64,000 bases of DNA from Candidatus Uhrbacteria bacterium RIFCSPHIGHO2_02_FULL_46_47. Its GTDB lineage: Bacteria > Patescibacteriota > Patescibacteriia > GWA2-47-26. The position numbers and the translations under genes were made by a program. The notes under the pieces are model-generated. The model was not told where the DNA came from and ran no database searches. It was given only the letters and a program-made list of their open reading frames with translations. Every line of letters begins with the position of its first letter. The stretch's first letter is position 1. Shown here piece after piece: positions 18,715 through 63,221 of this stretch. The DNA is taken from the NCBI GenBank assembly GCA_001790815.1, contig MGDU01000020.1:14277-78276 (forward strand), given 5' to 3'.

Positions 18715-19806
18715 CTATATTTTGATAATTGCCACACGATCCAATCTTGCCAGATCTTTTACTATTTTTACGCTGGCGCGCGGGAAAAATGTCCGCGCTA
18801 AAATTTTTATGTCGTCGGATTGATGAGGGTCAATTTCGCAAATTACAGACACTCGTAACTCCCCCTCACCCCCTCTTACCCTAAGAGGGGGAATGCCTTT
18901 TGACCCATCTCCTCCCCTTAAGATAAGGGGAGGTTGGGAGGGGTTATGTATTTTTTTCAATTGTTCAAACAATTTTCTATAATAATCCAACCCGGTTTTC
19001 CCTCCATCCAACGCGCCCCTAGGCTCAAAATTGCGCACTTCTGGCATAGCGCCCCGCCATTCACGGGTGGGCAGATACGGAAGATTGGCAGTGATTAGGA
19101 GATGAGTAGGTAGTATGTAGTATGTAGGAGGTAGAAATGGTTTGAGTAGGTTGCCATGGAAAAATTTAATTTTCTCTTCCACACCGTGCTGCTTGGCATT
19201 TTGTTTGGCCACGCGCAATGCCGCACGCGAGATATCAGTGGCAAAAAATGTAATCGCGTCTCCTCGTGGCCAGGCCACGGGTCGCGCCTGCGGCAGTGAC
19301 CTGGCCACTTCCACCGCGATTGCCACCACAATCGCCCCACTGCCAGTTCCAATATCAACAACCGTGTAACGTGTAGCGCGTAACTTGTAACGTGTCATTT
19401 CCTTGAGTGCCTCATCTACCAATATTTCCGTTTCCGGCCGCGGGATAAGCACATTTCTGTTCACTAAAAAATCCAATCCGTAAAATTCTTTGTGCCCGAT
19501 AATATACGCCACCGGCTCATGATTTATCCGTCGCGTGATAAATTGTTTAAAAATTTTGAGCTGCGCAGAGGTCAGTTTTTGCTCCGGATAGCCGTACAGC
19601 CATGCACGCCCCCTCACCTCATTCCTCTCCCTCAGGGAGAGGATGTCCAGTAGGACAGGTGAGGGTGAAACGGCATGCGTCAAAAGCACCTCCGCATCAA
19701 GCGCGGGTGAATCCGTCACTGAGTGATGGGCACCCTTATCACTCAGTGACGACCCGGTTTTTTTCAATTGCGCTATCCCCCACTTTAGCGCTTCGGCAAT
19801 TATCAT
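18715..19806 (-). CDS. prmC: Release-factor glutamine N5-methyltransferase PrmC/HemK
   Basis: VDIGTGSGAIVVAIA (SAM motif I) and the NLPYLP (NPPY) motif. Two in-frame repeat insertions (19611-19674 and 19093-19135). The 3' end reads through family-C elements at 18841-18950, so the native stop is probably near 18960. Confidence 0.8.
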   Translation of the reverse strand: MIIAEALKWGIAQLKKTGSSLSDKGAHHSVTDSPALDAEVLLTHAVSPSPVLLDILSLRERNEVRGRAWLYGYPEQKLTSAQLKIFKQFITRRINHEPVAYIIGHKEFYGLDFLVNRNVLIPRPETEILVDEALKEMTRYKLRATRYTVVDIGTGSGAIVVAIAVEVARSLPQARPVAWPRGDAITFFATDISRAALRVAKQNAKQHGVEEKIKFFHGNLLKPFLPPTYYILPTHLLITANLPYLPTREWRGAMPEVRNFEPRGALDGGKTGLDYYRKLFEQLKKIHNPSQPPLILRGGDGSKGIPPLRVRGGEGELRVSVICEIDPHQSDDIKILARTFFPRASVKIVKDLARLDRVAIIKI

Positions 19807-19812
19807 ATATCT

Positions 19813-21009
19813 CTAATATGACACATTGTATCCGGTTGGCACAATTTCAATCCAAGTTGTGCCGCCGTTAAATTCTATTTCATTGCCTTGCGCGTCATAA
19901 AAGCGCATACGCTCCCGCGCACTTGGCTTTTTCCAAGTGCCAACTGACACGCGCCCGTCTTGGAATACCAATCCTTTGCCTTCGCCAATTGTAGTAAATT
20001 GTTTGCGCCCCAGATCGTCCAGCACTTTCATCTCTTCAAACGCCACCGCGATATTTTTTGTCACAATTTCCCGACCTTGCGCGTCTTTGTGTACCCCACC
20101 CCATTGCATGCGCGTGTATGAATTTCGCGCCTTGTCATAAAGCCACTCCACATTGTATGGCGCGGCATATCCTATCTTAATATCACTTACATTACCGCGT
20201 ACATCCGGCGAGGCATCGCCTTTGAATTTCCATGGATCAATATTTGGAAGCTCAGCTTCCGCAGCTGCGGAAGCTGAGCTTCCAAATATATCATCATATG
20301 CTTTTCTCAAAAGTTCAGAAGAAGTTAATACATTATGCGGCGCAGGACGGCTGGTCACGCGCCGAAAATACTCGCTCTTGTACCATTGATCAAGATCGTG
20401 CACGCCTTCTACTCCCTGTTTTCGAAGCATATCGTATGCCACAGGGCTTGAACCCACATGACCATAAAGCGTATCAAACTCGGAAGCCCAGTCCAGATAA
20501 TATGGTCGTGCTGAGCGTACTGGCCCGATTTCAATGTCCCCCCCTCCCCTAGCCCCTCCCACGGGTGGGGGGGGATTTCCATCTACTTCCTCCACCTTGA
20601 TGGGGGAGGATTGAGGTGGGGGTGGGGGCAATACAAAATATGCTAAAAATCGTGTAATGTTTGCTTCCGTCAGTGCTTCAAAAACAAGATTTGCGTCTGC
20701 AAGACCGGAAATCGGTTGTGCCTCAACCATATTCTCAACCATCACTCCTGCAAACGGCGATTTTTCCTTTCCTGGCTCAACCAGCACTCCGTCAAGCCCT
20801 CTACGCACGGCTGCAACCTCTGCCACTTTTGCCACTTCTGTCACCTTCGGCTTGCGCCAGGGAGCTAATTTCAACATCACCACAAGTACTAAAAAAACAA
20901 GAACCGCAACAAGTACGGTTTCTTTTCGCGCATGATGAAATTTTTTTTTGTTTTTCATTTCTTTATTTTTCTCGTAAAAAGGAGGCGCGGATGCGCGGCG
21001 TTCCCGCAC
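19813..21009 (-). CDS. DUF3048 (YerB-like) domain protein, membrane-anchored
   Basis: N-terminal TM, ...ANITRFLAYF...IGPVRSARPYYLDWA... Contains the in-frame element 20541-20630 and a 48-nt perfect palindrome at 20241-20288. Confidence 0.55.
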   Translation of the reverse strand: MRERRASAPPFYEKNKEMKNKKKFHHARKETVLVAVLVFLVLVVMLKLAPWRKPKVTEVAKVAEVAAVRRGLDGVLVEPGKEKSPFAGVMVENMVEAQPISGLADANLVFEALTEANITRFLAYFVLPPPPPQSSPIKVEEVDGNPPPPVGGARGGGDIEIGPVRSARPYYLDWASEFDTLYGHVGSSPVAYDMLRKQGVEGVHDLDQWYKSEYFRRVTSRPAPHNVLTSSELLRKAYDDIFGSSASAAAEAELPNIDPWKFKGDASPDVRGNVSDIKIGYAAPYNVEWLYDKARNSYTRMQWGGVHKDAQGREIVTKNIAVAFEEMKVLDDLGRKQFTTIGEGKGLVFQDGRVSVGTWKKPSARERMRFYDAQGNEIEFNGGTTWIEIVPTGYNVSY

Positions 21010-26097: not shown

Positions 26098-26246
26098 CGT
26101 AACTCCCCCAACCCCCTCTTACCCTAAGAGGGGGTTTTTGTTTGTGCTCCACCCCTTAGGATAAGGCCCGCTTCGCCCGCAAAGCGAGGCGAGGGAGGTA
26201 GGAGGGGTTACGAAATTTGATGTAGCCGCAGGTCTTTAGCCTGCGC
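26098..26246. repeat. Composite of repeat families C and D immediately after the gyrB stop (GTAACTCCCCC...CCCTAAGAGGGGG, ...CCTTAGGATAAGG...GGAGGGGTTACG, then GTAGCCGCAGGTCTTTAGCCTGCGC)
   Basis: Subunits recur at 18841-18950, 11876-11946, 52259-52300, 41722-41746 and 61060-61111. Confidence 0.8.
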
Positions 26247-35545: not shown

Positions 35546-36157
35546 ATGATATCTATTATTGCCGCGGTTGCAAAAAATGGAGTAATCGGTGCGAAAAATG
35601 ATTTGCCCTGGTATTTGCCCGAAGACTTGAAGCATTTTAAAGAGCTCACTACAGGTAAAACAGTGCTGATGGGGCGCAAAACTTTTGAATCAATTCTGAA
35701 ACGTTTAGGCAAACCCTTGCCCAATCGCAAAAATGTGGTGGTCACGCGGGATCGAAATTATACCCTCTCACCCCCTCCTCAATCCTCCCCCATCAAGGGG
35801 GAGGAAGAAAAAGGAAAAAATCCTCTCCCACAAGGGGAGAGGAAGAACCAAAAAATTCCCTCTCCCTTAATGGGAGAGGGTGCTCCGACCGCAGTCGGAG
35901 CGGGTGAGGGTGTATGTGTACACCACTCGGTTGACGAAGCGCTTGAGCACCACAGTGCCGAAGAAATTATGGTTGCCGGCGGAGGCGAGATATTTAGGCA
36001 AACAATGGACAAAGCAGATACGCTTTATGTTACTGAAGTCGACAAAATTGTAGAAGGCGATGTTTATTTTCCAACGATTGATCCAAAGATCTGGAAAGAA
36101 GTTACCCGCGAACCACATGATGGTTTTTCATTTGTCACCTATATTCGCAATTCGTAG
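35546..36157 (+). CDS. folA: Dihydrofolate reductase carrying a ~55-aa in-frame repeat-element insertion
   Basis: MISIIAAVAKNGVIGAKNDLPWYLPEDLKHFKELTTGKTVLMGRKTFESI is canonical DHFR. The insertion TLSPPPQSSPIKGEEEKGKNPLPQGERKNQKIPSPLMGEGAPTAVGAGEGV is encoded by 35762-35928. Confidence 0.88.
   Translation: MISIIAAVAKNGVIGAKNDLPWYLPEDLKHFKELTTGKTVLMGRKTFESILKRLGKPLPNRKNVVVTRDRNYTLSPPPQSSPIKGEEEKGKNPLPQGERKNQKIPSPLMGEGAPTAVGAGEGVCVHHSVDEALEHHSAEEIMVAGGGEIFRQTMDKADTLYVTEVDKIVEGDVYFPTIDPKIWKEVTREPHDGFSFVTYIRNS
35762..35928. repeat. Composite nested palindromic element (outer CCCTCACCC...GGGTGAGGG; inner family-B core CCCCCTCCTCAATCCTCCCCCATCAAGGGGGAGG; CCCTCTCCC..GGGAGAGGG; GCTCCGACCGCAGTCGGAGC)
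   Basis: Four nested hairpins, GC-rich relative to the flanking folA sequence. Confidence 0.85.
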
Positions 36158-36177
36158 ATTGGCATGAAATTTGTAGA

Positions 36178-37562: not shown

Positions 37563-39194
37563 ATGAAATATGAACCTATAATCGGGTTGGAAATCCATGT
37601 TCAACTCAAAACTAAAAGCAAGCTTTTCTGCGGTTGCGACAATCGCGGAGAAGACGCGCCGCCAAATACTACCGTGTGCCCTATTTGCATGGGACATCCC
37701 GGGACGCTTCCGGTATTGAATAAACAAGCGCTGGAATTTGGACTGATGGAAGCGCTGGCTTTGAATTGCAAAATTCCGGAAAAAGCAAAATTTGACCGGA
37801 AGAATTATTTTTATCCTGATTTGCCCAAGGGTTATCAAATTTCCATGTTTGATGAGCCAATTTGCGTGGACGGGCTTGTGCCGATTGATATTCAAGCCAC
37901 CGGAGGCGCGCGCAAGTACGCGGAAATCCGCATTACTCGCATTCATCTTGAAGATGATGCGGCAAAGAGTATGCATGCTCCCCCCTCACCCGACCCTCGG
38001 TCTCCATCTCCCGAAGGGGTCGAAGACGGGCCGAGCGAGCGCAGGCCCCGGGGAGGGCAGGGTGAGGGTAAAAATTCCACCTACGTCGATTTCAACCGCG
38101 CTGGGACGCCTTTGACTGAAATAGTGACTGAGCCGGATTTTCGCTCCCCACTTGAAGCCAAAACTTTTTTACACGAATTGCGCCGCATTATGCGCTATCT
38201 TGGAGTATCTGACGCGGATATGGAAAAAGGGCATATGCGTTGCGATGCCAATATCTCGTTACGCCCCCTTTCTTCACAATCTCCCTCTCCCCGTATGGGA
38301 GAGGGCGGGGGTGAGGGGTTATACCCAAAAACCGAAATCAAAAATATCAACTCCTTCCGCGCGGTTGAGCGGGCTTTACAGTATGAAATCCAACGTCAAA
38401 CAAAACTTTGGGAAGCAGGAACGCCACCGACCATTACTACTACCCGCGGCTGGAATGATGCTGAAGGAGTAACTGAGGAACAACGCGTGAAAGAGGAATC
38501 AGCCGATTATCACTATTTTCCTGAACCGGATTTGCCGCCCCTGCTTCTCCATGAAATTGCGGAGCAAGTCCGTCCGCGCATGCCAGAACTTCCCCGCGCA
38601 AAACGCACGCGTTTTCAAGAAGAGTACGGATTTCCGTCCGGGGATGCAATAATTTTAACGGAGGAAAAACAGCTGGCGGATTATGTGGAAAAAGTCATGT
38701 CAGAACTCCAAGCCTGGGTACGCACTCTTGAAACCGAAGGAACAGAAGAGGAAAAATGGGAAACGAATAAAAAGAAACTTACAAAACTATTTTCCGGCTG
38801 GTTTATTTCCAAACTTTTTGGACTTATGGAAAAACATGCAGTTGATATCCGCCGCCTCAAAATTACTCCGGAAAACTTTGCCGAATTTTTAACGCTTCTT
38901 CACGAAAATAAAATTTCGTCTGCGTCAGGACTTAAGCTTCTTGAAGATATGCTTTTGACCGGTGGCCACCCGCGCCTGATGGTTAAAGAGAAAAAACTGG
39001 AGCAAGTAACCAATGAGGAAGAAATTGCCTCTGTGGTGCAAGAAATTATTGATGCCAACCCTGAACCAGTAGCGGATTTTAAAGCTGGCAAGCAAAATGC
39101 ATTACAATTTTTAGTTGGCCAAGTTATGAAAGCGACCAAAGGCCGCGCCAACCCTCCCCTTGCCCAAAAACTACTAAAAAAAATGTTAAAATAG
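37563..39194 (+). CDS. gatB: Asp/Glu-tRNA(Asn/Gln) amidotransferase subunit B with two in-frame repeat insertions
   Basis: MKYEPIIGLEIHVQLKTKSKLFCGCDN... with a C-terminal YqeY-like domain. Insertions at 37987-38069 (PPSPDPRSPSPEGVEDGPSERRPRGGQGEGK) and 38263-38320 (SSQSPSPRMGEGGGEGL). Confidence 0.93.
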   Translation: MKYEPIIGLEIHVQLKTKSKLFCGCDNRGEDAPPNTTVCPICMGHPGTLPVLNKQALEFGLMEALALNCKIPEKAKFDRKNYFYPDLPKGYQISMFDEPICVDGLVPIDIQATGGARKYAEIRITRIHLEDDAAKSMHAPPSPDPRSPSPEGVEDGPSERRPRGGQGEGKNSTYVDFNRAGTPLTEIVTEPDFRSPLEAKTFLHELRRIMRYLGVSDADMEKGHMRCDANISLRPLSSQSPSPRMGEGGGEGLYPKTEIKNINSFRAVERALQYEIQRQTKLWEAGTPPTITTTRGWNDAEGVTEEQRVKEESADYHYFPEPDLPPLLLHEIAEQVRPRMPELPRAKRTRFQEEYGFPSGDAIILTEEKQLADYVEKVMSELQAWVRTLETEGTEEEKWETNKKKLTKLFSGWFISKLFGLMEKHAVDIRRLKITPENFAEFLTLLHENKISSASGLKLLEDMLLTGGHPRLMVKEKKLEQVTNEEEIASVVQEIIDANPEPVADFKAGKQNALQFLVGQVMKATKGRANPPLAQKLLKKMLK

Positions 39195-40222: not shown

Positions 40223-41206
40223 TCACAAACGAAAATTTCGCACGAGCCGTGCGGCTTCTTTTTTATTTTTCACCCACACAATTCTCTTATCCCTTTTAAA
40301 CCACGTCATCTGTCGGCGGGAATAATCTTTTATCGCGCGAGAAAGCTCTTTTTGCATCGTTCCGAGATTGGCGCGATCGCGAGAATCTCGGAATCCTGTT
40401 TTGGCACGGTAATTTTGCAAATAACGACTTATATGTCGATATTCTAAACCAAAGGATTCTAGGCGCTTCCAGGACACGCCTTGCGCGTGCAAACGCTCAA
40501 CTTCCTTAATCATCCCCTGCTTTAACCGCTCTTTAAGGCGTTTATCAATTCGGGGATCAAGCACATGTTTTGGAAAAGTAAGGCCTAGCATCAGCATCTC
40601 ATAAGGCGGCGGATGTTTTACGCGCTGTTTGGAAAGTGGAATGCCGGTCACCACACAAATCTCAATTGCCCGCTCCAGACGGCGGCGATTATTTTTATCA
40701 ATAGTGCGATATGTTTCCGGATCTAACTTTTTAAGTTTGGCACGCAACTCACGCAATGACATCGTGGCTAATTTTTTTCGTAACTTCAGATCAGGCGATG
40801 CCTCTGGCAAAACATAGCCATCAACCACAGCTTGCACATAAAGTCCAGTGCCACCAACCAGAATTGGCACTTTGCCGCGGCGCAAAATATCATCAATTGC
40901 TCTATATGCGAGCTTTTGATACTGCGCAAGCGTAAAATTCGTCCTTGGACTGACGATGTCAATAAGATGATACGGAATCCCCTCACCCCCGTCCCTCTCC
41001 CCGCGGGAGAGGGTGGCCGCAGGCCGGGTGAGGGCGGGGTGATGGCCATATTCGCTTAAATCTTTCCCCGTTCCAATATCCATGCCCTTATATACCTGCC
41101 GCGAATCCGCGCTTACAATCTCGCCATTAAACTTTCGTGCCAACTCAACCGCGAGTTTTGTTTTACCAGTGGCAGTTGGTCCAACGATTACAATTAATTT
41201 TTGCAT
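40223..41206 (-). CDS. miaA: tRNA dimethylallyltransferase with an in-frame repeat insertion
   Basis: MQKLIVIVGPTATGKTKLAVELA...ADSRQVYKGMDIGTGK... Insertion 40974-41052 encodes LTRPAATLSRGERDGGEG. Confidence 0.9.
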   Translation of the reverse strand: MQKLIVIVGPTATGKTKLAVELARKFNGEIVSADSRQVYKGMDIGTGKDLSEYGHHPALTRPAATLSRGERDGGEGIPYHLIDIVSPRTNFTLAQYQKLAYRAIDDILRRGKVPILVGGTGLYVQAVVDGYVLPEASPDLKLRKKLATMSLRELRAKLKKLDPETYRTIDKNNRRRLERAIEICVVTGIPLSKQRVKHPPPYEMLMLGLTFPKHVLDPRIDKRLKERLKQGMIKEVERLHAQGVSWKRLESFGLEYRHISRYLQNYRAKTGFRDSRDRANLGTMQKELSRAIKDYSRRQMTWFKRDKRIVWVKNKKEAARLVRNFRL

Positions 41207-41590: not shown

Positions 41591-41755
41591 GTACACCTCC
41601 TGCGCGAAGGGTACCACATTTTTGGACTTTTGTCAAGGCCGGGGGGTGTGGTAGAATGAAAAAATGTAGCGCGGGGCTTTATGCCCCGCTTAAGCGGCAC
41701 ACAAGGTGCCGCGCTACCATTGCGCCGGCTAAAGACCGGCGGCTACAATAATCTT

Positions 41756-44729: not shown

Positions 44730-46583
44730 CTAAGTCTTATTTTCAATTTCTTTTTTCACACGTTTGATAAACGCACTAACAGCCATTTGCGGCTGTTTTT
44801 GCTGTCCGCGAATGCGCACAGTTAATTTACGAAGTGACTTCTCTTTATCACCTATTACCAGCATATACGGAATCTTTTGCTTTTCTGCTTTGCGAATTTT
44901 ATAACCAACCGTATCGTTGCCATCATCTGTTTCCACCCGCAGCCCTTCGGCGCTGAGCATTTTCCCAAGCTTGCGTACAGCAGTGCTATGTCCTTTGCCA
45001 ACTGAACCCACATATACTTGCACCGGAGCAAGCCATACCGGAAACGCCCCGCCGTAGTGTTCAATAAGAATTGAAAGATAGCGTTCAATAGATCCCATAA
45101 TAGCCGCGTGGATCATGACAATACGCTCTTTTTCGCCTTTTTCATTCACACAAGTAAGATCAAACCGCTCTGGCTGATTCATATCCAGCTGAATAGTAGC
45201 AACTTGCCACTGCCGCCCGAGCGAATCTTTAGCCAAAAAATCAATTTTAGGGCCATAAAATGCCGCCTCCCCTTTTGCCTCTATTGCCTTTTCTCTTTTT
45301 TCTTTTATCACAGCACGTAATTGCCCTTCTGCATTCTGCCATTGCGCTTCTTCTCCAAGATATTTGTCCATCTGTGCGGGATCATGCAGTGAAAGACGCA
45401 CAGTAAGAGAAAATCCGGCAGCTTTATAAAATTTCTTAATAATTTCCCAGATATTGCTTATTTCCTTTCCAATCTGGGATGTTCGGCAAAACACATGCGC
45501 GTCATCTTGAGTAAAGGCGCGCACGCGAGAAAGGCCGTGCAACTCTCCGGTTTGCTCATCACGGTAGCATGTCGTTGTATTAGCATATCTCTGTGGGAGT
45601 TCGCGATAACTAAACTGCCGACGCGCATACAATTGAGTGTGGTGCGGACAATTCATCGGCTTCATCGCAAACTCATGCCCCTCACGCGTGGTAATCTTAA
45701 ATAATTCATCTTTAAACTTTTGCCAATGCCCGCTTTTTTCGTACAAATCTTTTTTGGTAATATGAGGGATTTCCACTTTTTGATAGCCATATGGCGCGCG
45801 CAATTCCCACACAAAATTATCAAGTGTGTTGCGCAAAAATGTACCCTTGGGCGTCCAAAGCGGAAGACCTGGGCCGACTAAATCTGAAAAAGTAAAAAGA
45901 TCTAGTTGTTCGCCAAGTTTGCGGTGATCTCTCTTTTCTGCCTCAGCCATCATTTCCAAATGCTTTTTTAATTCATCTTCAGTATAAAATGCAAGGCCGT
46001 AAATGCGCTGAAGTTGCTTGTTCTTTTCGCTTCCTCGCCAATATGCGCCGGCAATGCTGGTAAGTTTAAATACGCCAATTTGTCCAGAATGTTCCACATG
46101 CGGCCCGCGACAAAGATCAATAAACTTCCCAGTTTCATAAACTGAAACCTTCATAACCCCCTTGTCCCCCCTTATCTTAAGGGGGGTACTTATTTTTTCT
46201 CCCTCCCTTAAGGTAAGGGAGGGTTGGGGAGGGTTATGCAGAATCTCATCCATCTTCGTCGTACCATGCTTCTTGATATCCTCAAGGAGTTCTACCTTAA
46301 AATCCTGCCCGCGCCCCTTAAAATATGCAATCGCTTCCTCAAGCGGCATTTCACGGCGCACAAACTTTTCCTTGCGCTTCTGAATCTCCTTTATCCGCTT
46401 TTCAATTTTAAGCAAGTCCACTGGTGTAAATTTGTGCTCCAAATCAAAATCATAAAAAAAGCCGTTTTCAATCACCGGCCCTACTCCCAATTTTGTGTCG
46501 GGGAATAATTCAAGAACCGCGCCAGCAAGAATGTGGGCGGTTGAGTGGCGTACTGTTTCTATGGGAAAATGCTCGTCGGCCAT
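44730..46583 (-). CDS. thrS: Threonyl-tRNA synthetase with an in-frame repeat insertion
   Basis: Class II motifs (...CRGPHVEHSGQIGVFKL..., ...MIHAAIMGSIERY...). Insertion 46145-46245 encodes PPQPSLTLREGEKISTPLKIRGDKG. Confidence 0.92.
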   Translation of the reverse strand: MADEHFPIETVRHSTAHILAGAVLELFPDTKLGVGPVIENGFFYDFDLEHKFTPVDLLKIEKRIKEIQKRKEKFVRREMPLEEAIAYFKGRGQDFKVELLEDIKKHGTTKMDEILHNPPQPSLTLREGEKISTPLKIRGDKGVMKVSVYETGKFIDLCRGPHVEHSGQIGVFKLTSIAGAYWRGSEKNKQLQRIYGLAFYTEDELKKHLEMMAEAEKRDHRKLGEQLDLFTFSDLVGPGLPLWTPKGTFLRNTLDNFVWELRAPYGYQKVEIPHITKKDLYEKSGHWQKFKDELFKITTREGHEFAMKPMNCPHHTQLYARRQFSYRELPQRYANTTTCYRDEQTGELHGLSRVRAFTQDDAHVFCRTSQIGKEISNIWEIIKKFYKAAGFSLTVRLSLHDPAQMDKYLGEEAQWQNAEGQLRAVIKEKREKAIEAKGEAAFYGPKIDFLAKDSLGRQWQVATIQLDMNQPERFDLTCVNEKGEKERIVMIHAAIMGSIERYLSILIEHYGGAFPVWLAPVQVYVGSVGKGHSTAVRKLGKMLSAEGLRVETDDGNDTVGYKIRKAEKQKIPYMLVIGDKEKSLRKLTVRIRGQQKQPQMAVSAFIKRVKKEIENKT

Positions 46584-49719: not shown

Positions 49720-52700
49720 TTATCCTACTATACTTACGGCATCTTTGCCAACTATGGATTTCAAGGATTGCAAAATAGCCGGCAAAGGATCAATGCAAAA
49801 ACTGGTCTCAATAGTGCGTTTTTGTCCATTTTGTTCAAGCACAATAAAGACCGGAAGCGCGCCATGGGTTGATGAAAGGAAAGTGCGCAATGTATCAAGA
49901 ATATTTTTATCTTGAGTGGCAAGGCTAATAAAGATACGCTGACCAGATGACAGAGGACGGATGACAGAGGACGGATCTGTCTTCTGTTTTCTGTCTTCTG
50001 TTTTACGCAAAGGCGCACCCTGAAGACCGGCGGCTACATTGTCATGCGTAAGCGGCATGGCGCGATCGCACACTACTCGTTTTTCCTCTCCTCCGCCTTT
50101 GCCCCACACACAAAGTAATGTGCCATCGGTAAATAATTCCGGACTGACTTTATAGGCCTTGGGAAATACGATAAGTTCGCATGATCCCGCAAGATCTTGC
50201 AGACGCGCGGTTAGCATGGCCTCGCCATTTTTAGTAAAACGTTTTTTGCAATCCACAAGCACCCCAGCCAACATTAGCGGCGTATTGTCTTTCAACTCGG
50301 TTAGGGCACCGGTAGCCACAACTTTGCCTTTGAGTACTTCTTCAAATTCATAAAGCGGATGCGAGGTAACATACAAACCCAGCAATTCTTTTTCCCACTG
50401 CAATTTTTCCTCCTTACTTGCCGGCGGAACATTGTCTTTAAGCGTCAGTTTGCGCACTTGCGGCAAAGCCCCAAACAGCGAACTCTGTTTAGTTGGCATC
50501 TCCGCCGCGCCCCGATTAAACGTGAGCATCACTTCCATGCTTTCCATCATGAAAGCGCGGTCGCCAAAGCGATCCATCGCGCCGGATTTTACCAAACTTT
50601 CCAGCGATTTCTTGTTCAAATTCTTGTGCTGAACGCGTTTTAGACAGTCTTCCAAATCCACAAACAAACCGTTACTTTCACGCTCGGCAATTATTGCCCC
50701 CACTACATCAGTCCCTAAATTTTTAATCGCGAGCAACCCAAAACGAATATGTGTATCATCCACATATGTAAAATCCTTTCCGCTTTCATTAACATCCGGC
50801 GGAAGAACAGTAATTCCGGCTTCACGCGCGCCGGCAATTACTTCCGCAACTTTATCACTATTTCCAGCTTCAGCAGTCAAAATCGCGGTGATAAATTCCG
50901 CCGGAAAATGCGCTTTCATGTAGGCGGTTTGATAAGCTACCATGCCATAGGAGGCGGCATGCGCTTTGTTAAAGCCGTAAGCCGCAAATGGCTCAATAAG
51001 GGCCCAAAGCTCTTCTGCCTTTGTTCGCGGAAGGCCGCCTTTCACACAGCCGGTTAAAAATTTCTCGCGCTGGGCAATCATTTCGCGCGGAATCTTTTTT
51101 CCCATTGCTTTGCGCAGTTTATCTGCCTCTTCCCAACTGTAACCGGCAAGCTCAATAGCAATCAAAAGCACGTCGTCTTGATAAACCAAAATTCCATAAG
51201 TGCGCTCCAAAATTGTCGCCAGGCGCGGATCCAAATATGATACAAGGCGCGGATTATGTTTGCGGCGAATATACTCCGGGATTGATTCCATCGGACCGGG
51301 GCGAAACAGCGCAACCATGGCCATAATATCATGAATTGAAGAGGGCTTGAGTTCTTTTAAATAGCGCGTCATGCCAGATCCGGCAAGCTGGAATACACCC
51401 ATGGTATCCCCGCGCGAAAGCATTTCAAAAGTTTTAGCATCGTGGGACGGAAGTTTTCCAATATCAATCTCCATTCCTTTTGTTTTCTTCACGATTGAAA
51501 CGGCATCTCCAAGAATGGAGAGATTGCGAATGCCAAGCATATCCATTTTAACCAGCCCTGCCGCCTCGGCAGCGTGCATGTCATATTGAGTGATGATATT
51601 GTCGCCATTGGCTTCACGCGCAAGCGGAGTAAAATCCGTAAGTTTGGTAGGCGCGATAACCATACCGGCGGCATGCACTGAAGCATGGCGCGCGCATCCC
51701 TCAACTTTGCGCGCCAGATCAAGCACGCGCTTAACATTTGCATCTTCGTTGTAAAGTTTTCCAAGATCCGGATTTTCCTCAAGCGCGCGATCAACAGTCA
51801 TGTGAAATCCTTGCGCGCCTGGCGGAATCATTTTAGAAATTTTATCACCAAAAGAATAGGGCAGGCCAAGTACGCGCGTTACATCACGCACAGCCGCGCG
51901 TGGTAGCATGGTTCCAAACGTGCAAATCTGCGCCACTTTATCCGCGCCGTACTTTTGACGCACATAATCAATCACCTCATCACGGCGATTATCCGCGAAA
52001 TCCACATCAATATCCGGCGGGGTTGGACGGGTGACAGTTAAAAATCGCTCAAATGGCAGTTTAAAATCCAAAGGATTTATCGTAGTTATATCAATAAGAT
52101 ATGAAACCAGCGATCCTGCGGCTGAACCGCGAGTAGTTACCACAATGCCTTGCTCGCGCGCCCATTTTACATAATCTGACACAATCAAAAAATAAGTAGA
52201 GAAACCAGTTTTCTTAATTACATCAAGCTCGTAATCAATACGCTTTTTAATCTCATCTGTAACTCCCCCTCCCCTCACCCCTCCCACAGGTGGAGGGGAA
52301 TTTATTTTTTCTTCCTCCCCCTTTATGGGGGAGGATTGAGGTGGGGGTGCACCAAATTTTTCCTGCGCCCCCTGCCAGGTAAGCTCCTGCAAATACTCAT
52401 CATGAGTTTTGCCTTGGGTTGGAAATTGCGGAAAAGCCCATTTATTAAGCGTGAGTTCCAGATTGCAAAGCTCGGCCACTTTCAAAGTATTTGCCACCGC
52501 CTCTGGCATGTCAGCCCATTGTTCTTCCACCCGTTTGGGCGAGGCAAACGAAAGATCCGCGCCAGTCATGTTCAGACGGCCTTTGTCAGTGATAAATTTT
52601 CCAGTTTGCACGCAAACCAGTACATCCTGGGCTTCGGCGTCGTCAGCGTGCAAATAATGGCTGTCTACAGTGGCAACCGGAAGCAGGCCCAGTTCTTTAC

Positions 52701-53280
52701 ATAGACGAAACATTCCTTCATTTACGACTTCCTGCTCCGGTAGTTCTGGGTGTTTTTGCACCTCAGCAAAAAAGTTTTCTTTTCCGAAAATTTCTTGAAA
52801 CTCTTGCGCAACACGCTTGGCCTCTTCATATTTGCCGGCCATAAGCGCGCGCGAAATTTCTCCGCGCAAACAGCCTGACAGGGCTATAAGCCCTTTGCCA
52901 TGCACTCTAAGTAAATTTTTGTCTATCCGTGGTTTGTAGTAAAAACCTTCCAGATGCGCAATGGTCGTGAGCATCATGAGGTTGCGATAGCCCTCTTCAT
53001 TGCGCGCCAAAAGCGTTAAATGGTGATAATCCTTGTCCACCCCAGCGCGCTTTTCTTCTTTTTCTCCAAGCGCCATATACGCCTCCATTCCAATAATCGG
53101 TTTCACTCCTGCTTTTTTGCATGCTTGATAAAACTCCAGCGCGCCATACATTACTCCATGATCTGTGAGTGCCAGCGCCGGACATCCAAACTCTTTTGCT
53201 TTTGCCACTAGGTCGTGAATTTTAGGAAGACCATCAAGAAGAGAATAATGGGAGTGGGTATGGAGATGGACAAAAGACAT
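49720..53280 (-). CDS. dnaE: DNA polymerase III alpha subunit with in-frame repeat insertions
   Basis: N-terminal PHP domain (MSFVHLHTHSHYSLLDG), polymerase core, OB fold. Insertions at 52259-52348 (PPPQSSPIKGEEEKINSPPPVGGVRGGGV) and 49948-50040. Confidence 0.95.
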   Translation of the reverse strand: MSFVHLHTHSHYSLLDGLPKIHDLVAKAKEFGCPALALTDHGVMYGALEFYQACKKAGVKPIIGMEAYMALGEKEEKRAGVDKDYHHLTLLARNEEGYRNLMMLTTIAHLEGFYYKPRIDKNLLRVHGKGLIALSGCLRGEISRALMAGKYEEAKRVAQEFQEIFGKENFFAEVQKHPELPEQEVVNEGMFRLCKELGLLPVATVDSHYLHADDAEAQDVLVCVQTGKFITDKGRLNMTGADLSFASPKRVEEQWADMPEAVANTLKVAELCNLELTLNKWAFPQFPTQGKTHDEYLQELTWQGAQEKFGAPPPQSSPIKGEEEKINSPPPVGGVRGGGVTDEIKKRIDYELDVIKKTGFSTYFLIVSDYVKWAREQGIVVTTRGSAAGSLVSYLIDITTINPLDFKLPFERFLTVTRPTPPDIDVDFADNRRDEVIDYVRQKYGADKVAQICTFGTMLPRAAVRDVTRVLGLPYSFGDKISKMIPPGAQGFHMTVDRALEENPDLGKLYNEDANVKRVLDLARKVEGCARHASVHAAGMVIAPTKLTDFTPLAREANGDNIITQYDMHAAEAAGLVKMDMLGIRNLSILGDAVSIVKKTKGMEIDIGKLPSHDAKTFEMLSRGDTMGVFQLAGSGMTRYLKELKPSSIHDIMAMVALFRPGPMESIPEYIRRKHNPRLVSYLDPRLATILERTYGILVYQDDVLLIAIELAGYSWEEADKLRKAMGKKIPREMIAQREKFLTGCVKGGLPRTKAEELWALIEPFAAYGFNKAHAASYGMVAYQTAYMKAHFPAEFITAILTAEAGNSDKVAEVIAGAREAGITVLPPDVNESGKDFTYVDDTHIRFGLLAIKNLGTDVVGAIIAERESNGLFVDLEDCLKRVQHKNLNKKSLESLVKSGAMDRFGDRAFMMESMEVMLTFNRGAAEMPTKQSSLFGALPQVRKLTLKDNVPPASKEEKLQWEKELLGLYVTSHPLYEFEEVLKGKVVATGALTELKDNTPLMLAGVLVDCKKRFTKNGEAMLTARLQDLAGSCELIVFPKAYKVSPELFTDGTLLCVWGKGGGEEKRVVCDRAMPLTHDNVAAGLQGAPLRKTEDRKQKTDPSSVIRPLSSGQRIFISLATQDKNILDTLRTFLSSTHGALPVFIVLEQNGQKRTIETSFCIDPLPAILQSLKSIVGKDAVSIVG

Positions 53281-53734: not shown

Positions 53735-53857
53735 AATTCTCAAATTTCCTCCGGCCGCTACAAATCTGACACGAAACATAGTGCGCAGATTTTCTGCGCC
53801 CGCAGAATTTTGACTCACTAATTTTCTTACATATCAGGCGAGATACGTCTTTTAAAA

Positions 53858-53895
53858 TTATGTCAACTGTGAGCGATCGTTTATATTTGACATAA
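53858..53895. promoter_or_regulatory. Conserved 38-nt palindromic motif (copy 2)
   Basis: Identical to 26328-26365 over the full 38 nt. Confidence 0.6.
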
Positions 53896-54057
53896 TTCCA
53901 TTTTGCCGTGTACTACTGATCCTGCGGCAGATTCATTACGATCGTGGTATTCTTACCGCAAAATAACAGCACGATGAGATGTAAAAAATACAAAAGATCG
54001 CGGAGACTTTGCCCCGCGACCTAATTTTTCGAAAGTTAGGTTCACTCTAGAAAAAAG

Positions 54058-54621: not shown

Positions 54622-54900
54622 GCAAGGGGGGATGTGGATAACTTGGATGCCATTGCTTGACAAAAATGCGTAATATGGTATGCTGAATATGGTTATCAAT
54701 CCATGAGCCACACTCCTATCCGGAGTCAAAAAACAGTCCCGCATTTGCGGGATTGTTTTTCATATTCACAATTTTTGCTATACTTAAGAGTGCACGGAGT
54801 GGCTAGGAGGGTATTGCTATACAGTTTTATAGCCATGGATTGATAACCCATTGACCCCGAAAGGGGTGTGGTGCAACTCCACTGCCCTCCGTGTAAAAAT

Positions 54901-54938
54901 CCCCCCGATGTCCATCGGGGGGATTTTTATTTTCCAAA
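54901..54938. terminator. Bidirectional rho-independent terminator (TCCCCCCGATG-TC-CATCGGGGGGA)
   Basis: 11-bp GC-rich stem flanked by A5 and T-rich runs. Lies 3' of gene 54944..55300. Confidence 0.7.
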
Positions 54939-55377: not shown

Positions 55378-57963
55378 TTAATTTCTAATCTTTGCCCCAA
55401 ACTTATCCTTTAACATCTTGACCAGTTTCTCGTGCACGCGCTCAGCTTCTTGCGCTGTAAGTGTCCGCTCAGGGCTCACATAACTTAAATGAAAAGCCAC
55501 ACTGCGGCTTCCCTCCGGCACGCCTTTGCCTTCATATAAATCAAATAGCTCGACTTTGTGCAGAAGAGGATCAATTTGCTGTATTGCGGCAACCAGTGTT
55601 GCGTATTCCACAGTCTTTGGTGCCACAAATGCAATATCGCGCTTTACTGGCGGATAAGACAATGGCGCACGATATACCCTCCCGCTTCCAATAAGCGGCA
55701 GAAGCACTTTTGCTTCCCATTCCAAAAATGCTACGCGTTGCTCTATGCCATATGCTTTAAGGAGCGATGGGTGTAATTCCCCTACCACACCTAGTATATC
55801 ACGCCCAGCCTTGCATAACAAAACCCGGCCGGGATGATAGCGGCTGGCCCAGGGTGTCTTTTCTGATTTGGCAATTTTTTCAAATGAAAAATCAGAAAGT
55901 CCAAGCACATATGCTAAATGTTCTGCTATACCCTTGAGTCCAAAAAAGTGCTGACCGTCGCGCTCTTCGCGACCGGCACAGGATACGATAAGTTTTTGTC
56001 GTTCCTCTGGCAACTCACCCATGCGCGGATGGTATTCGCTTGAGAGTTCAAAAAATTTCAACATCTTTCCGGCTTCTTCATTTTTTTTGATTGACAAAAG
56101 CATGGAAATTCCCAGCCATGGCCGCATATGCGTAATTTCAGAGCTTAATGGATTTTGCAAAGCTACTGCATTCTCAACTTTAAGCCCAGCGCGCAATATT
56201 TCATCTGCCGAAATAAATGAGTAAGTATACAATTCAGTAAGACCTGCACCGCGCAAAATTTCCTTTATCATGCGCTCTTGCGCAAATTGTATATTTGGTG
56301 GTTCATCTGGCGGTGCGCCGGCCGGCAATACACTTGGTAGATTATGGTATCCATACATGCGTGCTACTTCCTCCGCAATATCTGCAAGCCCGCCAGCTTC
56401 TATTTCGCGCCAGTATGGAAAGGTCACGCTCCACTTGTTTGCACTGCCAGCAACCTTAAATCCTAATCCAGTTAAATACTTTTTCATCTGTGTTGCCGGT
56501 ATTTCCACGCCGATCATGCGCGAAATATCCTGTGGAGAAACTTTAACCTTGTTCCCCTCACCCTGCCCTCTCCCTAGGGGAGAGGATGGCCGAAGGCCAA
56601 GTGAGGGTTTCCGATCCACAACCTGCACCACTTCCCCGCCAGCCACTTGTTTTGTAAGCTCGGCCAATCGCGCAGCAGCAAATTCCGGCAACTGTGTTGG
56701 CAAACCTTTGTTAAAGCGTGCAGATGAATCGCTGGAAAGGCCAAGCTGATGCTCGCCGCGTCGCACTGTAACCGGATCAAAATTAGCAATTTCATATACA
56801 ATACGCATGGTATCTGCATGCACGCCGGTTTCTTCTCCTCCCATAATTCCAGCAATGGCAACTGGCCGTCCTGCCCCGTAGTGTTGCTTTGCACTACTAC
56901 TGGGGTTGGCATCCGCAATCACTAAAATATTTTCATCAAGATCATAAGTATTTCCATCCAGTGCCAAAATTTTCTCACCCTTCTTCCCCATCCGCACCAC
57001 AATCTCCGTTCGTGTCTGTTCGTCTCCGTTTCGTGTATTGTTCGTGTGTTGCAGCTTTGCTGCATCGAAGGCATGACATGGTTGTCCCCATTCCAAAAGC
57101 ACATAATTTGTAATATCCACGATATTGTTGATCGGCCGCACACCAGAGGCGATCAGTCGTCTTTTCAGCCACCAGGGCGATGGACCAACTTTTACACCCT
57201 CCATCACCACGGCCATATATCGGGGACAAAGTTTCGGCACTTCCACTTTTACCTCTAATGATTTTTGGATTTGGGATTTGGGATTTGTTTGAAATTTGGT
57301 GCTTGGGATTTGGAATTTTACACCCAATATCGCCCCCACTTCCCTTGCCAATCCAATCATTCCCATAGCATCCGGCCGATTGGTAGTGATTTCAATTTCC
57401 ATTACTGTGTCATCAAGACCAAGCGCCTTTGCCAGAGGTGTGCCGGGCTTGGCCTTGGTCCAAGTTAAATCCAAAATCTCGCGTTTCCCACCACCCTCTC
57501 CCTCTCCCCGGGGGAGAGGGTGCAGGGTGAGGGCTTCAAGTCCAATTTCATTTGCCGCGCAAATCATGCCTTCACTTTTTACTCCGCGAATTTCAGTTAT
57601 TTTCATTTCAACCTGTTCTCCTTCTCCATGCCAGCGCACCTTCGCGCCTGGAAGAGCAACAGCCACCAATTGTCCTTCAAACAAATTTGTTCCGCCGCAC
57701 ACAATAGGGACGTTCCCCTTTTTGGTCGCAAAAAGGGGAACGTCCCCTACTTCGACCATCACTACACGCAACTTGTCCGCATTCGGATGTTTTTCAATCT
57801 TCACGATTTTTCCTATCACGATATTTTCCAAACCCTCATCCGTTCTCCACCATCTTTCAACTGAAAAAGCATGCAAAGATAATTTCTGCGCCACTTCTTC
57901 CGGAGACGCTTTTAATCCAGGCAAATATTCACGCAACCAATTGTATGAAACCATTAAATTCAT
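55378..57963 (-). CDS. pheT: Phenylalanyl-tRNA synthetase beta subunit with two in-frame repeat insertions
   Basis: tRNA-binding, B3/4 and B5 domains and the C-terminal FDX-ACB. Insertions at 56546-56612 and 57487-57535. Confidence 0.93.
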   Translation of the reverse strand: MNLMVSYNWLREYLPGLKASPEEVAQKLSLHAFSVERWWRTDEGLENIVIGKIVKIEKHPNADKLRVVMVEVGDVPLFATKKGNVPIVCGGTNLFEGQLVAVALPGAKVRWHGEGEQVEMKITEIRGVKSEGMICAANEIGLEALTLHPLPRGEGEGGGKREILDLTWTKAKPGTPLAKALGLDDTVMEIEITTNRPDAMGMIGLAREVGAILGVKFQIPSTKFQTNPKSQIQKSLEVKVEVPKLCPRYMAVVMEGVKVGPSPWWLKRRLIASGVRPINNIVDITNYVLLEWGQPCHAFDAAKLQHTNNTRNGDEQTRTEIVVRMGKKGEKILALDGNTYDLDENILVIADANPSSSAKQHYGAGRPVAIAGIMGGEETGVHADTMRIVYEIANFDPVTVRRGEHQLGLSSDSSARFNKGLPTQLPEFAAARLAELTKQVAGGEVVQVVDRKPSLGLRPSSPLGRGQGEGNKVKVSPQDISRMIGVEIPATQMKKYLTGLGFKVAGSANKWSVTFPYWREIEAGGLADIAEEVARMYGYHNLPSVLPAGAPPDEPPNIQFAQERMIKEILRGAGLTELYTYSFISADEILRAGLKVENAVALQNPLSSEITHMRPWLGISMLLSIKKNEEAGKMLKFFELSSEYHPRMGELPEERQKLIVSCAGREERDGQHFFGLKGIAEHLAYVLGLSDFSFEKIAKSEKTPWASRYHPGRVLLCKAGRDILGVVGELHPSLLKAYGIEQRVAFLEWEAKVLLPLIGSGRVYRAPLSYPPVKRDIAFVAPKTVEYATLVAAIQQIDPLLHKVELFDLYEGKGVPEGSRSVAFHLSYVSPERTLTAQEAERVHEKLVKMLKDKFGAKIRN

Positions 57964-57965: not shown

Positions 57966-59111
57966 TTAAAATTGCTCTAGAAAATTCAGATCCGCAATAT
58001 AAAATGCCCGAATATCGCTGAGTTTCAACTTCATCATAAGCATGCGTTCAATTCCCCAACCGCAGGCAAACCCGCTATATTCCTTTGGATCAATTCCGCC
58101 GGCTTTTAAAACATTGGGGTGTACCATGCCAGCTCCGCCCAGTTCATGCCACCCGCTTTTGCATACTTTGCACCGCTCGCCATGTATTTCTCCAGTGCCA
58201 CCACAAATGCCGCAGGAAATATCAATTTCAAAACTCGGTTCAGTAAACCGAAAATGAAATGGCCGCAAACGCGTGCGCCGATCTTTTCCATAATAAGCGC
58301 GCGCAAAATAATCAAGCGTGCCTTTCAAATGTGTAACCGATACATTGCGATCAATCAACAACCCTTCAAATTGATGAAACATCGGCGCGTGCGTAACATC
58401 AGATTGCCGGCGATAGCATTTTGCAATATTGATCATGCGAATGGGTGGCCGCCGGCGCTCCATCTCGCGCACCTGGCCATTGGAAGTGTGCGGGGTAAGT
58501 ACCATCCTGCCTAACTTTGGATGTTCTGCGGCCCTCACCCTCCCCTCTCTCTCGGGGAGAGGGTGTCCGTTAGGACGGGTGAGGGTCTGCTGCGAGCCAG
58601 CAATGAAGAACGTTTCCCATTCATCGCGCGCTGGATGGCCCTTGGGCATGTTTAAACTTTCAAACGCGTAATAATCCCAATCTATTTCCGGATAACGCAT
58701 ACGCTGAAATCCCAGTTGCGCGAAAATCCGGCTGATTTCTTCAATCGCCTGCGTGGTGATATGCAAATGTCCGTACGGCAGGCGCGCGCCCGGAAGCGTT
58801 ACATCCAGCGCCTCGGCTTCAGCCAGTTTTTCCAAAGCAAGTGTTTGCATTGCATTTTCCCGTTGTTCTAGTGCTCTAGTGATTTCATGCTTTAATGCGT
58901 TAAGCTCCTGCCCTTGCCTTGCCCGCTCATCACCTTTTAATTTTGTAAGCTGCGCAAAAAACTCGGCCACAATCCCCTTGCGGCCCAGATATTTCACCCG
59001 CAATTCCTCCAGCACACTTTGTGATTGTGCTTGCTCAATAGCCTGCTTGGCCTCCTGTAAAATATTATTGGATTTCATATTATTCGTAATGTCGTAGTTT
59101 CGTAGCGACAT
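57966..59111 (-). CDS. pheS: Phenylalanyl-tRNA synthetase alpha subunit with an in-frame repeat insertion
   Basis: Class II core (...FRFTEPSFEIDI..., GWGIERMLM). Insertion 58522-58590. The true start may be the internal Met at ~59078. Confidence 0.93.
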   Translation of the reverse strand: MSLRNYDITNNMKSNNILQEAKQAIEQAQSQSVLEELRVKYLGRKGIVAEFFAQLTKLKGDERARQGQELNALKHEITRALEQRENAMQTLALEKLAEAEALDVTLPGARLPYGHLHITTQAIEEISRIFAQLGFQRMRYPEIDWDYYAFESLNMPKGHPARDEWETFFIAGSQQTLTRPNGHPLPEREGRVRAAEHPKLGRMVLTPHTSNGQVREMERRRPPIRMINIAKCYRRQSDVTHAPMFHQFEGLLIDRNVSVTHLKGTLDYFARAYYGKDRRTRLRPFHFRFTEPSFEIDISCGICGGTGEIHGERCKVCKSGWHELGGAGMVHPNVLKAGGIDPKEYSGFACGWGIERMLMMKLKLSDIRAFYIADLNFLEQF

Positions 59112-61059: not shown

Positions 61060-61111
61060 GTAGTCGCAGCTCTTTAGGCTGCGCAGTCGCCGGCTAAAGA
61101 CCGGCGGCTAC
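61060..61111. repeat. Family-D hairpin pair (GTAGTCGCAGCTCTTTAGGCTGCGC / GCCGGCTAAAGACCGGCGGCTAC)
   Basis: Same pair architecture as 26554-26614. Single units at 26219-26246 and 41722-41746. Confidence 0.8.
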
Positions 61112-61123
61112 CGTGATAATGTT

Positions 61124-63184: not shown

Positions 63185-63221
63185 TTTATTTTTCTGTTTT
63201 TTTACGATTTGGGCATCTGAA

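Follow-up and report, generated by a model that had tools for sequence, protein, structure and literature searches.

BoxC, PIT and "intrastrand triplex motif" (TM) repeats have been known since the 1990s and are described as intergenic sequences. One sub-family of repeats, assigned here to this class of G/C-rich dispersed elements by its sequence pattern, was found in the same reading frame within three unrelated genes, i.e., dnaE, a DUF3048 gene and folA, in 64,000 nucleotides of Candidatus Uhrbacteria bacterium RIFCSPHIGHO2_02_FULL_46_47 (the whole stretch analysed, hereafter the window), an uncultured groundwater member of the candidate phyla radiation (CPR). The original prediction on this DNA had compared the three copies with Rickettsia palindromic elements (RPEs). 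The comparison was apt. The membership in the BoxC/PIT/TM class and the at least 11 in-gene sites of such inserts in the window had been overlooked.

The E. coli triplex motif, TMECO, has the consensus CCCTCNCCC N3-6 GGGNGAGGG N3 GGGNGAGGG (Holder et al. 2015, PMC4666352). In the passages of that paper on TMECO, 3610 occurrences are reported, from 262 proteobacterial genomes only, and all copies of E. coli K-12 (23/23) are intergenic. The copies are frequently arranged as inverted pairs and are linked to local sequence instability. The isolated single strand formed a triplex in vitro by circular dichroism and nuclear magnetic resonance, and none was detected in double-stranded DNA or in vivo. 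Promoter activity, terminator activity and a transposon link were all not found according to these passages, in which the CPR is not mentioned. Earlier work by Bachellier et al. and Hoyne/Maher et al. is cited in the same paper.

RPEs (Ogata et al. 2000/2002, as summarised in PMC10969869) are about 100-150 bp long and are confined to Rickettsia. [quoted passage not shown] The combination of TM repeats in CPR essential genes, a density of about one site per 4.6 kb and a frame preference beyond stop avoidance was not found in the searchable literature.

Insertions in dnaE, the DUF3048 gene and folA

The three copies were located inside long open reading frames (ORFs) with Pfam matches to DnaE, DUF3048 and dihydrofolate reductase (DHFR), so the hosts were as claimed.

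49720-53280, minus strand, dnaE (DNA polymerase III alpha), 1186 aa; Pfam PHP, DNA_pol3_alpha, finger and HHH_6
19813-21009, minus strand, DUF3048 (YerB-like) gene, 398 aa; Pfam DUF3048 and DUF3048_C, PDB 2psb
35546-36157, plus strand, folA (DHFR), 203 aa; Pfam DHFR_1 in two stretches, PDB matches

The 21-nt core GGGGGAGGATTGAGGTGGGGG was found with 0 mismatches at 52327-52347(+) and 20602-20622(+) and with 1 mismatch at 35771-35791(-). It had no match in 100 dinucleotide-preserving shuffles, i.e., 0 copies are expected by chance. By repeat finding within the window, the dnaE and DUF3048 copies were 86% identical across 85 nt, and the folA copy was 90-92% identical to each of the other two over 49 nt. 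The copies are translated as GAPPPQSSPIKGEEEKINSPPPVGGVRGGGV in DnaE, PPPPPQSSPIKVEEVDGNPPPPVGGARGGG in the DUF3048 protein and SPPPQSSPIKGEEEKGK in DHFR. In these translations, both the orientation to the coding strand and the reading frame agree among the three, as had been predicted. The peptide PPPQSSPIK is common to all of them; the continuation KGEE(E)K, also said to be shared, is not, since the DUF3048 copy reads KVEEVD.

Comparison with orthologues and solved structures confirmed that one sub-family was inserted in unrelated genes, and gave the extents of the insertions.

52267..52347, minus strand, composite B+A insertion in dnaE, 81 nt, 27 codons, encodes PPPQSSPIKGEEEKINSPPPVGGVRGG
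52312..52347, plus strand, B module of dnaE, template strand, written as the purine-motif triplex sequence TTCCTCCCCC / TTTAT / GGGGGAGGAT / T / GAGGTGGGGG, by triplex-pattern and core motif searches
20540..20624, minus strand, composite B+A insertion in the DUF3048 gene, encodes PPPPQSSPIKVEEVDGNPPPPVGGARGG, 86% identity to the dnaE copy
35765..35905, plus strand, insertion of 47 aa in folA (aa 74-120), placed between Coxiella DHFR (3tq8) residues 70 and 72

The site in dnaE had been given as 52259-52348, and the exact insertion against orthologues is the 81 nt listed. In the DUF3048 copy the core is present, and the pyrimidine arm is CCTCCACC rather than the predicted CCTCCCCC. The folA copy also contains the core, but the extent of 35770-35803 was too small; the true insertion contains four hairpin modules.

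The order of parts in the dnaE and DUF3048 inserts is C-tail, hairpin B, A-rich linker, hairpin A and G-tail. In each hairpin with its tail, a pyrimidine arm is followed by the purine arm complementary to it and then by a purine arm in mirror repeat. In dnaE, the B module reads C-tail CCCCCACCT, CAA, TCCTCCCCC, ATAAA and GGGGGAGGA, and is followed by the A-rich linker and the A module (CCCCTCC, ACCTGTG, GGAGGGG, TGA, GGGGAGGGGG). The tails of this insert pair and enclose the two hairpins in a computed RNA fold of -54.2 kcal/mol (z = -4.4). The folA insert opens with the same C-tail and hairpin B (B module, 35769-35806), continues with hairpins at 35821-35843, 35858-35880 and 35882-35901, and ends in the closing G-tail GGGTGAGGG; its computed RNA fold reaches -95.3 kcal/mol (z = -10).

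The dnaE insert is missing, codon for codon, in orthologues of 70-79% identity. Its 27 residues, PPPQSSPIKGEEEKINSPPPVGGVRGG, are absent from nearly all of the 40 best DnaE homologues, including the 76-78% identical P0002-P0005, and the DNA of a syntenic contig (L118) differs by exactly 81 nt between GGTGC(A/C) and GG(A/G). When aligned with Pol III alpha structures from E. coli and Thermus aquaticus (Taq), the site falls in a length-variable segment. In the DUF3048 protein, aa 129-160 take the place of residues 75-78 of YerB (PDB 2psb), i.e., about 28 extra aa in the alignment. The folA insert falls between two strands, and no insert was found at this site in 99 of the 120 closest homologues. 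In an AlphaFold2 model from a 90-sequence alignment, the DHFR core had pLDDT >90, and the insert had 44-59 and no secondary structure. By these alignments, each of the three copies is placed as an insertion in a variable surface loop. Across the in-gene inserts that were compared with empty sites, the differences were 81, 66, 30 and 18 nt, all multiples of three and stop-free in the host frame. Peptides spanning the junctions are predicted, e.g., K.FGAPPPQSSPIK and GEEEKINSPPPVGGVR. The DnaE of the window is 100% identical to a protein of Candidatus Uhrbacteria bacterium RIFCSPLOWO2_01_FULL_47_24 and was found on 17 contigs.

Orientation and reading frame

By frame-blind DNA searches of genomes and metagenomes, 13 independent in-gene insertions of the B module were collected. 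Those in HtrA, MetRS, TsaD, UvrD-like and surface proteins come from other Uhrbacteria and from metagenomes.

Insertions 1-3, dnaE, DUF3048 gene and folA of the window
685-aa Desantisbacteria protein (L034)
Large surface protein (L076)
MetRS (L092)
Dehydrogenase-like protein (L122)
HtrA (L086 and L126/127/131 share the site and were counted as one event)
TsaD, twice (L124)
UvrD-like helicase (L123/125)
Lipoprotein (L128 = P0123)
TSP3-repeat protein (L129)

The frame that reads PPPQSSPIK (F1) is used by 12 of the 13, one insertion uses a second sense frame (F2; TsaD, HPLLNPPPSRGRKGEG), and none is antisense. Of the six frames, 2-5 are open in each copy. With an equal chance for every open frame, about 4.1 of 13 would be expected in F1, and the Poisson-binomial p for at least 12 is ~6e-6. 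A factor other than stop avoidance is therefore at work, be it peptide-level selection, adaptation of the element lineage or insertion bias. Since stops in the unused frames may postdate the insertion, the frame test is conservative. The check proposed earlier, that only one of six frames of the consensus would be stop-free, failed: the consensus core is open in three sense frames and the two-module composite in two. Among the open frames, only F1 is free of clustered hydrophobic or aromatic residues and of strong charge; the peptide is ...RGRKKKEVPLPLWEGLGEG in F2 and FLPLDGGGLRW in an antisense frame. The only non-F1 case found lies on a metagenome contig (Ga0209343_10212278), where one TsaD gene has both a composite that is read in F1 and a lone module that is read in F2.

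In all insertions (13/13), the pyrimidine-rich strand is the sense strand, and the purine motif lies on the template. This rule is obeyed by genes on either DNA strand, so the bias tracks translation and not replication. Simple CCCTCTCCC hairpins, which are incapable of stops, were found in all three frames (4:3:3 in the window and its flank), which argues that integration itself is frame-blind. A second sub-family is always read as PPLxxRGG, because a TAA is placed in its stem. Both controls point to an integration that is blind to frame, with selection acting afterwards.

TM sites in the window

The TM criterion was a pyrimidine arm, a Watson-Crick purine arm and a mirror purine arm (G·G, A·A or T·A triads), with loops kept short and no more than one mismatch. 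By this pattern, 16 modules were found at 14 sites of the window, against 0 in 20 block-shuffled controls. They include the B modules of dnaE and folA and both A modules; the DUF3048 B module escaped the search with one stem mismatch too many. Eleven sites were located in ORFs, i.e., PrmC (2), DUF3048, DHFR, GatB, MiaA, ThrRS, DnaE, PheT (2) and PheS. Coding DNA is not avoided: 11 of 14 sites are in ORFs, and the coding fraction is 0.87 (P = 0.27 for 11 or fewer). Two more TMs were found in the 16.7 kb of flank, both in genes (Peptidase_M17 and amino-acid kinase). Sites other than the three described above include the following.

18857..18945, minus strand, second sub-family composite in prmC, encodes HNPSQPPLILRGGDGSKGIPPLRVRGGEG; ends CATAACCCC...GGGGTTATG, hairpins CCCCCTCTTA-nnn-TAAGAGGGGG
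19611..19643, minus strand, single TM module in prmC (ILSLRERNEVRG)
26101..26134, no strand assigned, intergenic TM module directly downstream of gyrB
38282..38317, plus strand, TM module in gatB, strict TMECO fit: CCCTCTCCC CGTAT GGGAGAGGG CGG GGGTGAGGG
40980..41037, minus strand, TM module and C-tail in miaA (HPALTRPAATLSRGERDGGEG), not in the L136 orthologue
46155..46235, minus strand, second sub-family composite in thrS (HNPPQPSLTLREGEKISTPLKIRGDKG), not in the L136 orthologue
56555..56586, minus strand, TM module in pheT (SSPLGRGQGEG); L118 is empty, L136 has a different TM (NPSSPPLTLRG)
57489..57534, minus strand, TM module in pheT (LTLHPLPRGEGEGGG); L118 and L136 are empty
58532..58572, minus strand, TM module inside a 22-codon pheS insertion (TLTRPNGHPLPEREGRVRA), not in L118
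63941..63976, no strand assigned, intergenic TM module of the second sub-family

In gatB, at 37975-38025, another G/C-rich hairpin insert was located, in frame and of another type (GACCCTCGG...CCGAAGGGGTC, read HAPPSPDPRSPSPEGVED); the triplex pattern did not fit it.

Relation to known repeats

The B module has the form TCCTCCCCC / TTGAT / GGGGGAGGA / TTG / AGGTGGGGG, often with a second module in inverted arrangement. The TM assignment made here is one of sequence pattern and computed hairpin folding. The PPPQSSPIK sub-family falls outside the TMECO consensus; because its arms differ (TCCTCCCCC/GGGGGAGGA/AGGTGGGGG), it is regarded as a variant within the wider G/C-rich TM class and not as TMECO. 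Three other in-gene elements of the window fit TMECO, strictly at 38283-38317 and with a 4-nt second loop at 40980-41013 and 57500-57533.

In common with BoxC/PIT/TMECO, as far as these are described in the passages on TMECO, the elements have an 8-10 nt pyrimidine arm, a 3-7 nt loop, a complementary purine arm, a short loop and a mirror purine arm. They are also G/C-rich, multi-copy and of extreme sequence conservation, and are gained and lost between relatives. Frequent inverted two-module pairs are another shared feature, as in E. coli between flgG and flgH. The pheT element at 57489..57534 is 82-86% identical over ~50 nt to unannotated sequences in 3880 of 5426 E. coli genomes, and the one E. 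coli copy inspected is this intergenic flgG/flgH inverted BoxC pair, with the same layout as the CPR composite. The main difference, one of property and not of definition, is that 11 of the 14 window sites are in genes and in frame, whereas the E. coli K-12 copies are reported as intergenic throughout. The density in the window, ~1 site per 4.6 kb, also differs from ~1 per 200 kb in E. coli K-12.

With RPEs, in the summarised form cited above, the elements share palindromic dispersed copies in frame in unrelated housekeeping genes, with one conserved peptide per family. The sites fit the host protein fold in a similar manner (the CD loop of DHFR, the length-variable DnaE segment, the YerB loop). 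No transposase is associated with RPEs, and none was found for the elements here in the scans given below. In both cases, the host is a small-genome, presumably host-dependent bacterium. Unlike RPEs, the elements here are 35-140 bp long, G/C-rich, modular (one to four hairpins) and common to many phyla. RPEs are A/T-rich, and homology to RPE-1 to RPE-10 is not expected, as composition and length differ.

MITEs (ERIC, Coxiella QMITE, Anabaena MITEs; PMC10969869) are likewise short non-autonomous repeats capable of in-frame fusions. Terminal inverted repeats of MITE type are seen in dnaE, where the computed fold joins the C-tail CCCCCACCTC to the G-tail GAGGGGAGGGGG, and likewise in folA. No target-site duplication was visible in the comparisons given below, and no parent insertion sequence was found in the scans given there. 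A difference from MITEs is that the termini are part of the triplex-type mirror repeat.

Rfam lacks a family for these repeats. No Rfam family was found at the gathering threshold anywhere in the window, and 18 loci of other phyla gave only unrelated tmRNA, tRNA and group II intron matches. The pheT element at 57489..57534 scored 23.2 bits to Whalefall-1 (RF01762), below the gathering score of 37, and by the Rfam criterion it does not belong to this family. The consensus of Whalefall-1 RNA has a CUCUCC/GGAGAG hairpin and then AGGGUGAGG, the same hairpin-plus-tail layout, but its spacer is 23 nt where the pheT element has 3 nt. The dnaE element gave two weak partial matches in BLAST against plasmids, which were uninformative.

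Turnover among relatives

The pheS, pheT, dnaE and miaA sites were compared with two syntenic contigs (L118 and L136) of 70-82% protein identity, and each was empty in at least one of them. The relatives carry their own TMs at the same or other sites. A PheT insert, PPL(T/N)LRGG, is common to L118 and L136 and not present in the window, PheS of L136 has an insert of its own, and the pheT site near aa 461 is filled by different TMs in the window and in L136. A related contig (L135) has the A module alone at the dnaE site, and a DHFR relative (P0126) has all modules but B. The same CD loop of DHFR is filled in 21 of 120 homologues, with many TM-like inserts, and one HtrA insertion is kept open in two species (L086, L126). 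By these alignments, single modules are gained or lost, and a few loops are reused repeatedly.

At five filled-versus-empty comparisons, among orthologues only 70-79% identical, no target-site duplication or conserved target sequence was visible. No transposase Pfam domain was found in ~40 window ORFs scanned individually or in Pfam lists precomputed for the called genes of L133/L134, which cover both window ends. Both negatives match the failure to link BoxC to mobile elements that is reported in the TMECO passages of PMC4666352.

The DnaE proteins of several relatives, i.e., P0006/L136 (10001-14800), P0010/L135 (39-4703), P0051, P0053 and P0061, are ~400 aa longer and carry an intein with LAGLIDADG (PF14890, PF14528). 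The window DnaE has no intein.

Distribution across phyla

The census was made at DNA level because the low complexity of the peptide defeats protein searches. A HMMER search with the 31-aa insert against 1.84 billion representatives gave only 3 matches, two of which look like spurious ORFs through repeat arrays, and a word-indexed search with a doubled 59-aa query gave 2 candidates. An exact 17-mer scan with one genome per species found at least 117 stretches. Among the matches listed, 87 copies also have the matching pyrimidine arm, and the 38-nt cores are almost invariant (TCCTCCCCCTTGATGGGGGAGGATTGAGGTGGGGGTGA). At least 12 phyla are represented (Chloroflexota, Desulfobacterota/Deltaproteobacteria, Alpha-/Gammaproteobacteria, Bacteroidota, Acidobacteriota, Actinomycetota, Melainabacteria, Elusimicrobia, Spirochaetota, Desantisbacteria, Uhrbacteria), with partner modules and linkers that vary by lineage. 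Seven loci among the matches listed belong to Pantoea sp. C3 (Gammaproteobacteria).

The copies deep in long ORFs, among the matches listed, were three from Uhrbacteria and one of the two from Desantisbacteria. In the other phyla, no convincing mid-gene copy was found among these matches; the copies fell in short ORFs, at ORF edges or in apparently spurious ORFs through arrays, and one locus (L025) was ambiguous. A role as 5' untranslated region or Shine-Dalgarno-like element of the GGAGG-containing core was considered and rejected, as the distances to downstream ORFs in other phyla are irregular and the role is inapplicable to in-gene copies.

In metagenome-assembled genomes of Syntrophaceae, Deltaproteobacteria and Thermodesulfobacteriota (L018, L027, L031, L088, L099, L041, L063, L066, L102), the B module was located in a conserved intergenic unit of ~170 nt. 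The order in this unit is GGTTCGTCACCCACGAACC hairpin, ATGAAAATTTACAAGTATTA spacer, B module, then CCCCCTCACCCC, CCCTCTCCC hairpin and AGATAATAGGGTTATTTTCT. By its sequence, the unit shows that shared modules form lineage-specific mosaics. An extreme expansion of the family was seen in the unclassified metagenome-assembled genome "bacterium Co_bin.149" (JAUIGL01), with at least 14 loci (e.g., L040, L048, L056, L062, L064, L069, L072, L081, L090, L097, L107, L113). There, a B-module variant is followed by a fixed AGAGGGAGTCTCTGACGACGTCG, and tandem arrays are common, with copies 100-270 nt apart.

Possible explanations

The inserts are probably selfish, RPE-like repeats that were filtered for an open frame and for a benign, disordered, hydrophilic peptide. 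TM repeats in this Candidatus Uhrbacteria lineage come and go at many places, essential genes included. The copies that persist in genes would be those that add a multiple of three bases, have the pyrimidine-rich strand as sense and so introduce no stop, land in surface loops tolerant of extra length, and use the frame that gives a roughly neutral, disordered peptide rich in Pro, Ser, Gly, Glu and Lys (PPPQSSPIKGEEEK...SPPLVGGVRGGG). Gene-resident copies possibly serve as sources of new copies, which would reinforce the bias. Like RPEs, the inserts would behave as selfish or neutral DNA and not as functional protein modules.

The reading preferred in the original prediction, that integration was random and stop codons closed every other frame, explains part of the pattern and is quite unlikely as the whole cause. 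Selection against stops accounts for much of the orientation bias, since all three antisense frames of the consensus B module contain a stop when its terminal TGA is counted. In the composite, T(A/G)A in the G-tail closes the third sense frame (F3), about half of the copies have F2 closed as well, and the stem TAA of the second sub-family leaves one always-open frame, the one seen. The choice of F1 is not explained in this way: 12 insertions were observed where ~4.1 were expected from the open frames, and the single modules of folA, L034, L076 and TsaD are open in all three sense frames. A bias of the insertion itself would arise if copying took place next to or into TM copies, or at G-run and C-run microhomologies (Gly/Pro codons), so that integration chemistry set phase and site. 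The reuse of the pheT site near aa 461, of the DHFR CD loop and of the dnaE site (A alone in L135) fits this idea, and P0126, with every module but B, suggests that B joined an existing insert. However, the same reuse would be seen if few loops are permissive, simple TMs use all three frames, no conserved target sequence or duplication was seen at the five empty sites, and a G-run of five or more has several possible registers, which would leave the phase unfixed. An insertion bias of this kind is considered an unlikely cause.

Repeated recruitment of PPPQSSPIKGEE...VGGVRGGG as an adaptive linker or binding motif would account for the nearly constant frame and for the HtrA insertion kept in two species. 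It would also fit the purine arm-tail loop variants TGA, TTA, TGC, CTA and CGA, which all read (V/A)R in F1. This seems very improbable, because this DNA lies mostly between genes in other phyla, the hosts have unrelated functions, close orthologues lack the inserts, and the low-complexity peptide is predicted to be disordered, with DNA palindromy conserved rather than the peptide. The very stable RNA structures within coding regions (-54 to -95 kcal/mol) would suit a hairpin cluster that is cut out of the mRNA or that the ribosome bypasses, and bypass elements exist in Magnusiomyces mitochondria. An insert that is not translated would have no need to be a multiple of three and stop-free, and no interrupted gene was seen in the window, so there is hardly any room for such a mechanism. 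Inteins and RNA-level or translational bypass were rejected for the same features, as the inserts are 6-47 codons long, in frame and stop-free. The genome is metagenome-assembled and repeats can mis-assemble, but an artefact of assembly or binning, or a chance resemblance, has a negligible probability: the identical DnaE was found on 17 contigs, the neighbouring MreB gene in 41 blocks of the collection, equivalent in-frame inserts are present in independent assemblies from other sites, and chance motif matches were 0.

Several points weigh against the explanation by selfish repeats under a peptide filter. The insertions themselves, their modular build, their patchy occurrence in orthologues, their position in loops and the frame bias were observed. 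That the inserts are translated, most simply as extra disordered loops, that peptide-level selection causes the frame bias, and that the elements are selfish and mobile are conclusions which we infer, the last from the distribution. A strong structural or functional constraint, one that the explanation does not name, could underlie the near-identity of the core across phyla, and mobility machinery was not found in the scans of the window and L133/L134. The frame statistic assumes that the frames open today were open at insertion and that a long spanning ORF is a real gene. Single-module copies alone give 3 F1 to 1 F2, and the TsaD insertion in F2 shows that other frames are viable.

A more far-reaching idea is that BoxC/TM repeats are pan-bacterial self-propagating DNA without a dedicated transposase, spread for example by structure-induced template switching or by repair where hairpins or triplexes form, and that one CPR sub-family evolved to be "coding-competent" with a harmless loop frame. 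This is offered tentatively and is rather doubtful. If true, a coding-competent sub-family would colonise essential genes densely and would be a steady source of loop expansions in streamlined genomes. The in-gene repeats that are present or absent in close relatives make insertion and loss datable and mappable at codon resolution. Repeat-derived low-complexity loops in CPR protein families can also distort alignments, ortholog length comparisons and structure prediction.

Other repeats and features of the window

An A/T-rich repeat family with units like ATTCGTAGATTGGCATGAAATTTGTAGATT was found at 11055-11173, 23044-23163, 26961-27068, 28393-28519, 33328-33439 and 36142-36189. Its direct and inverted copies, up to 108 nt at 89%, were located only in intergenic gaps by ribosomal-protein, nusG, thyA and tmk genes, and they may be repeats of promoters or operators. 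Three copies, 88-91% identical, of the palindromic repeat TTATGTCAACTGTGAGCGATCGTTTATATTTGACATAA (57 nt) were found at 26317-26373, 53847-53903 and 63136-63192. The small hairpin repeat TGCGCCGGCTAAAGACCGGCG(A/G)CTAC has four copies, at 26589-26617, 41721-41749, 50012-50040 and 61086-61114. By coordinates, at least two of these are in ORFs, i.e., at the start of a cation-efflux gene and, as a weak copy, in dnaE, so this may be another family tolerated in genes.

ARAGORN predicted an 86-nt tRNA-Ile(GAT) at 54806-54891, and Rfam gave no tRNA anywhere in the window with E up to 1. A strong terminator-like hairpin follows this call at ~54898-54930. The locus is either an atypical tRNA or another small structured RNA.

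Inverted repeats of 146 nt, 99% complementary and built of 48-nt sub-repeats, were found at 15866-16011 and 16641-16786 (also 14778-14825). They flank a 196-aa ORF (16023-16613, minus strand) without a Pfam match, and the arrangement could be an invertible or mobile cassette. This ORF was compared with a 196-aa PaaX/Cas2-like ORF in the flank and found to be unrelated. A 66-nt direct repeat of 92% identity (9790-9855 and 10706-10771) brackets a HEPN / nucleotidyltransferase toxin-antitoxin-like pair (9858-10573). One copy is inside the 3' part of the L7/L12 gene (10661-11071), and the repeat looks like the footprint of a cassette insertion.

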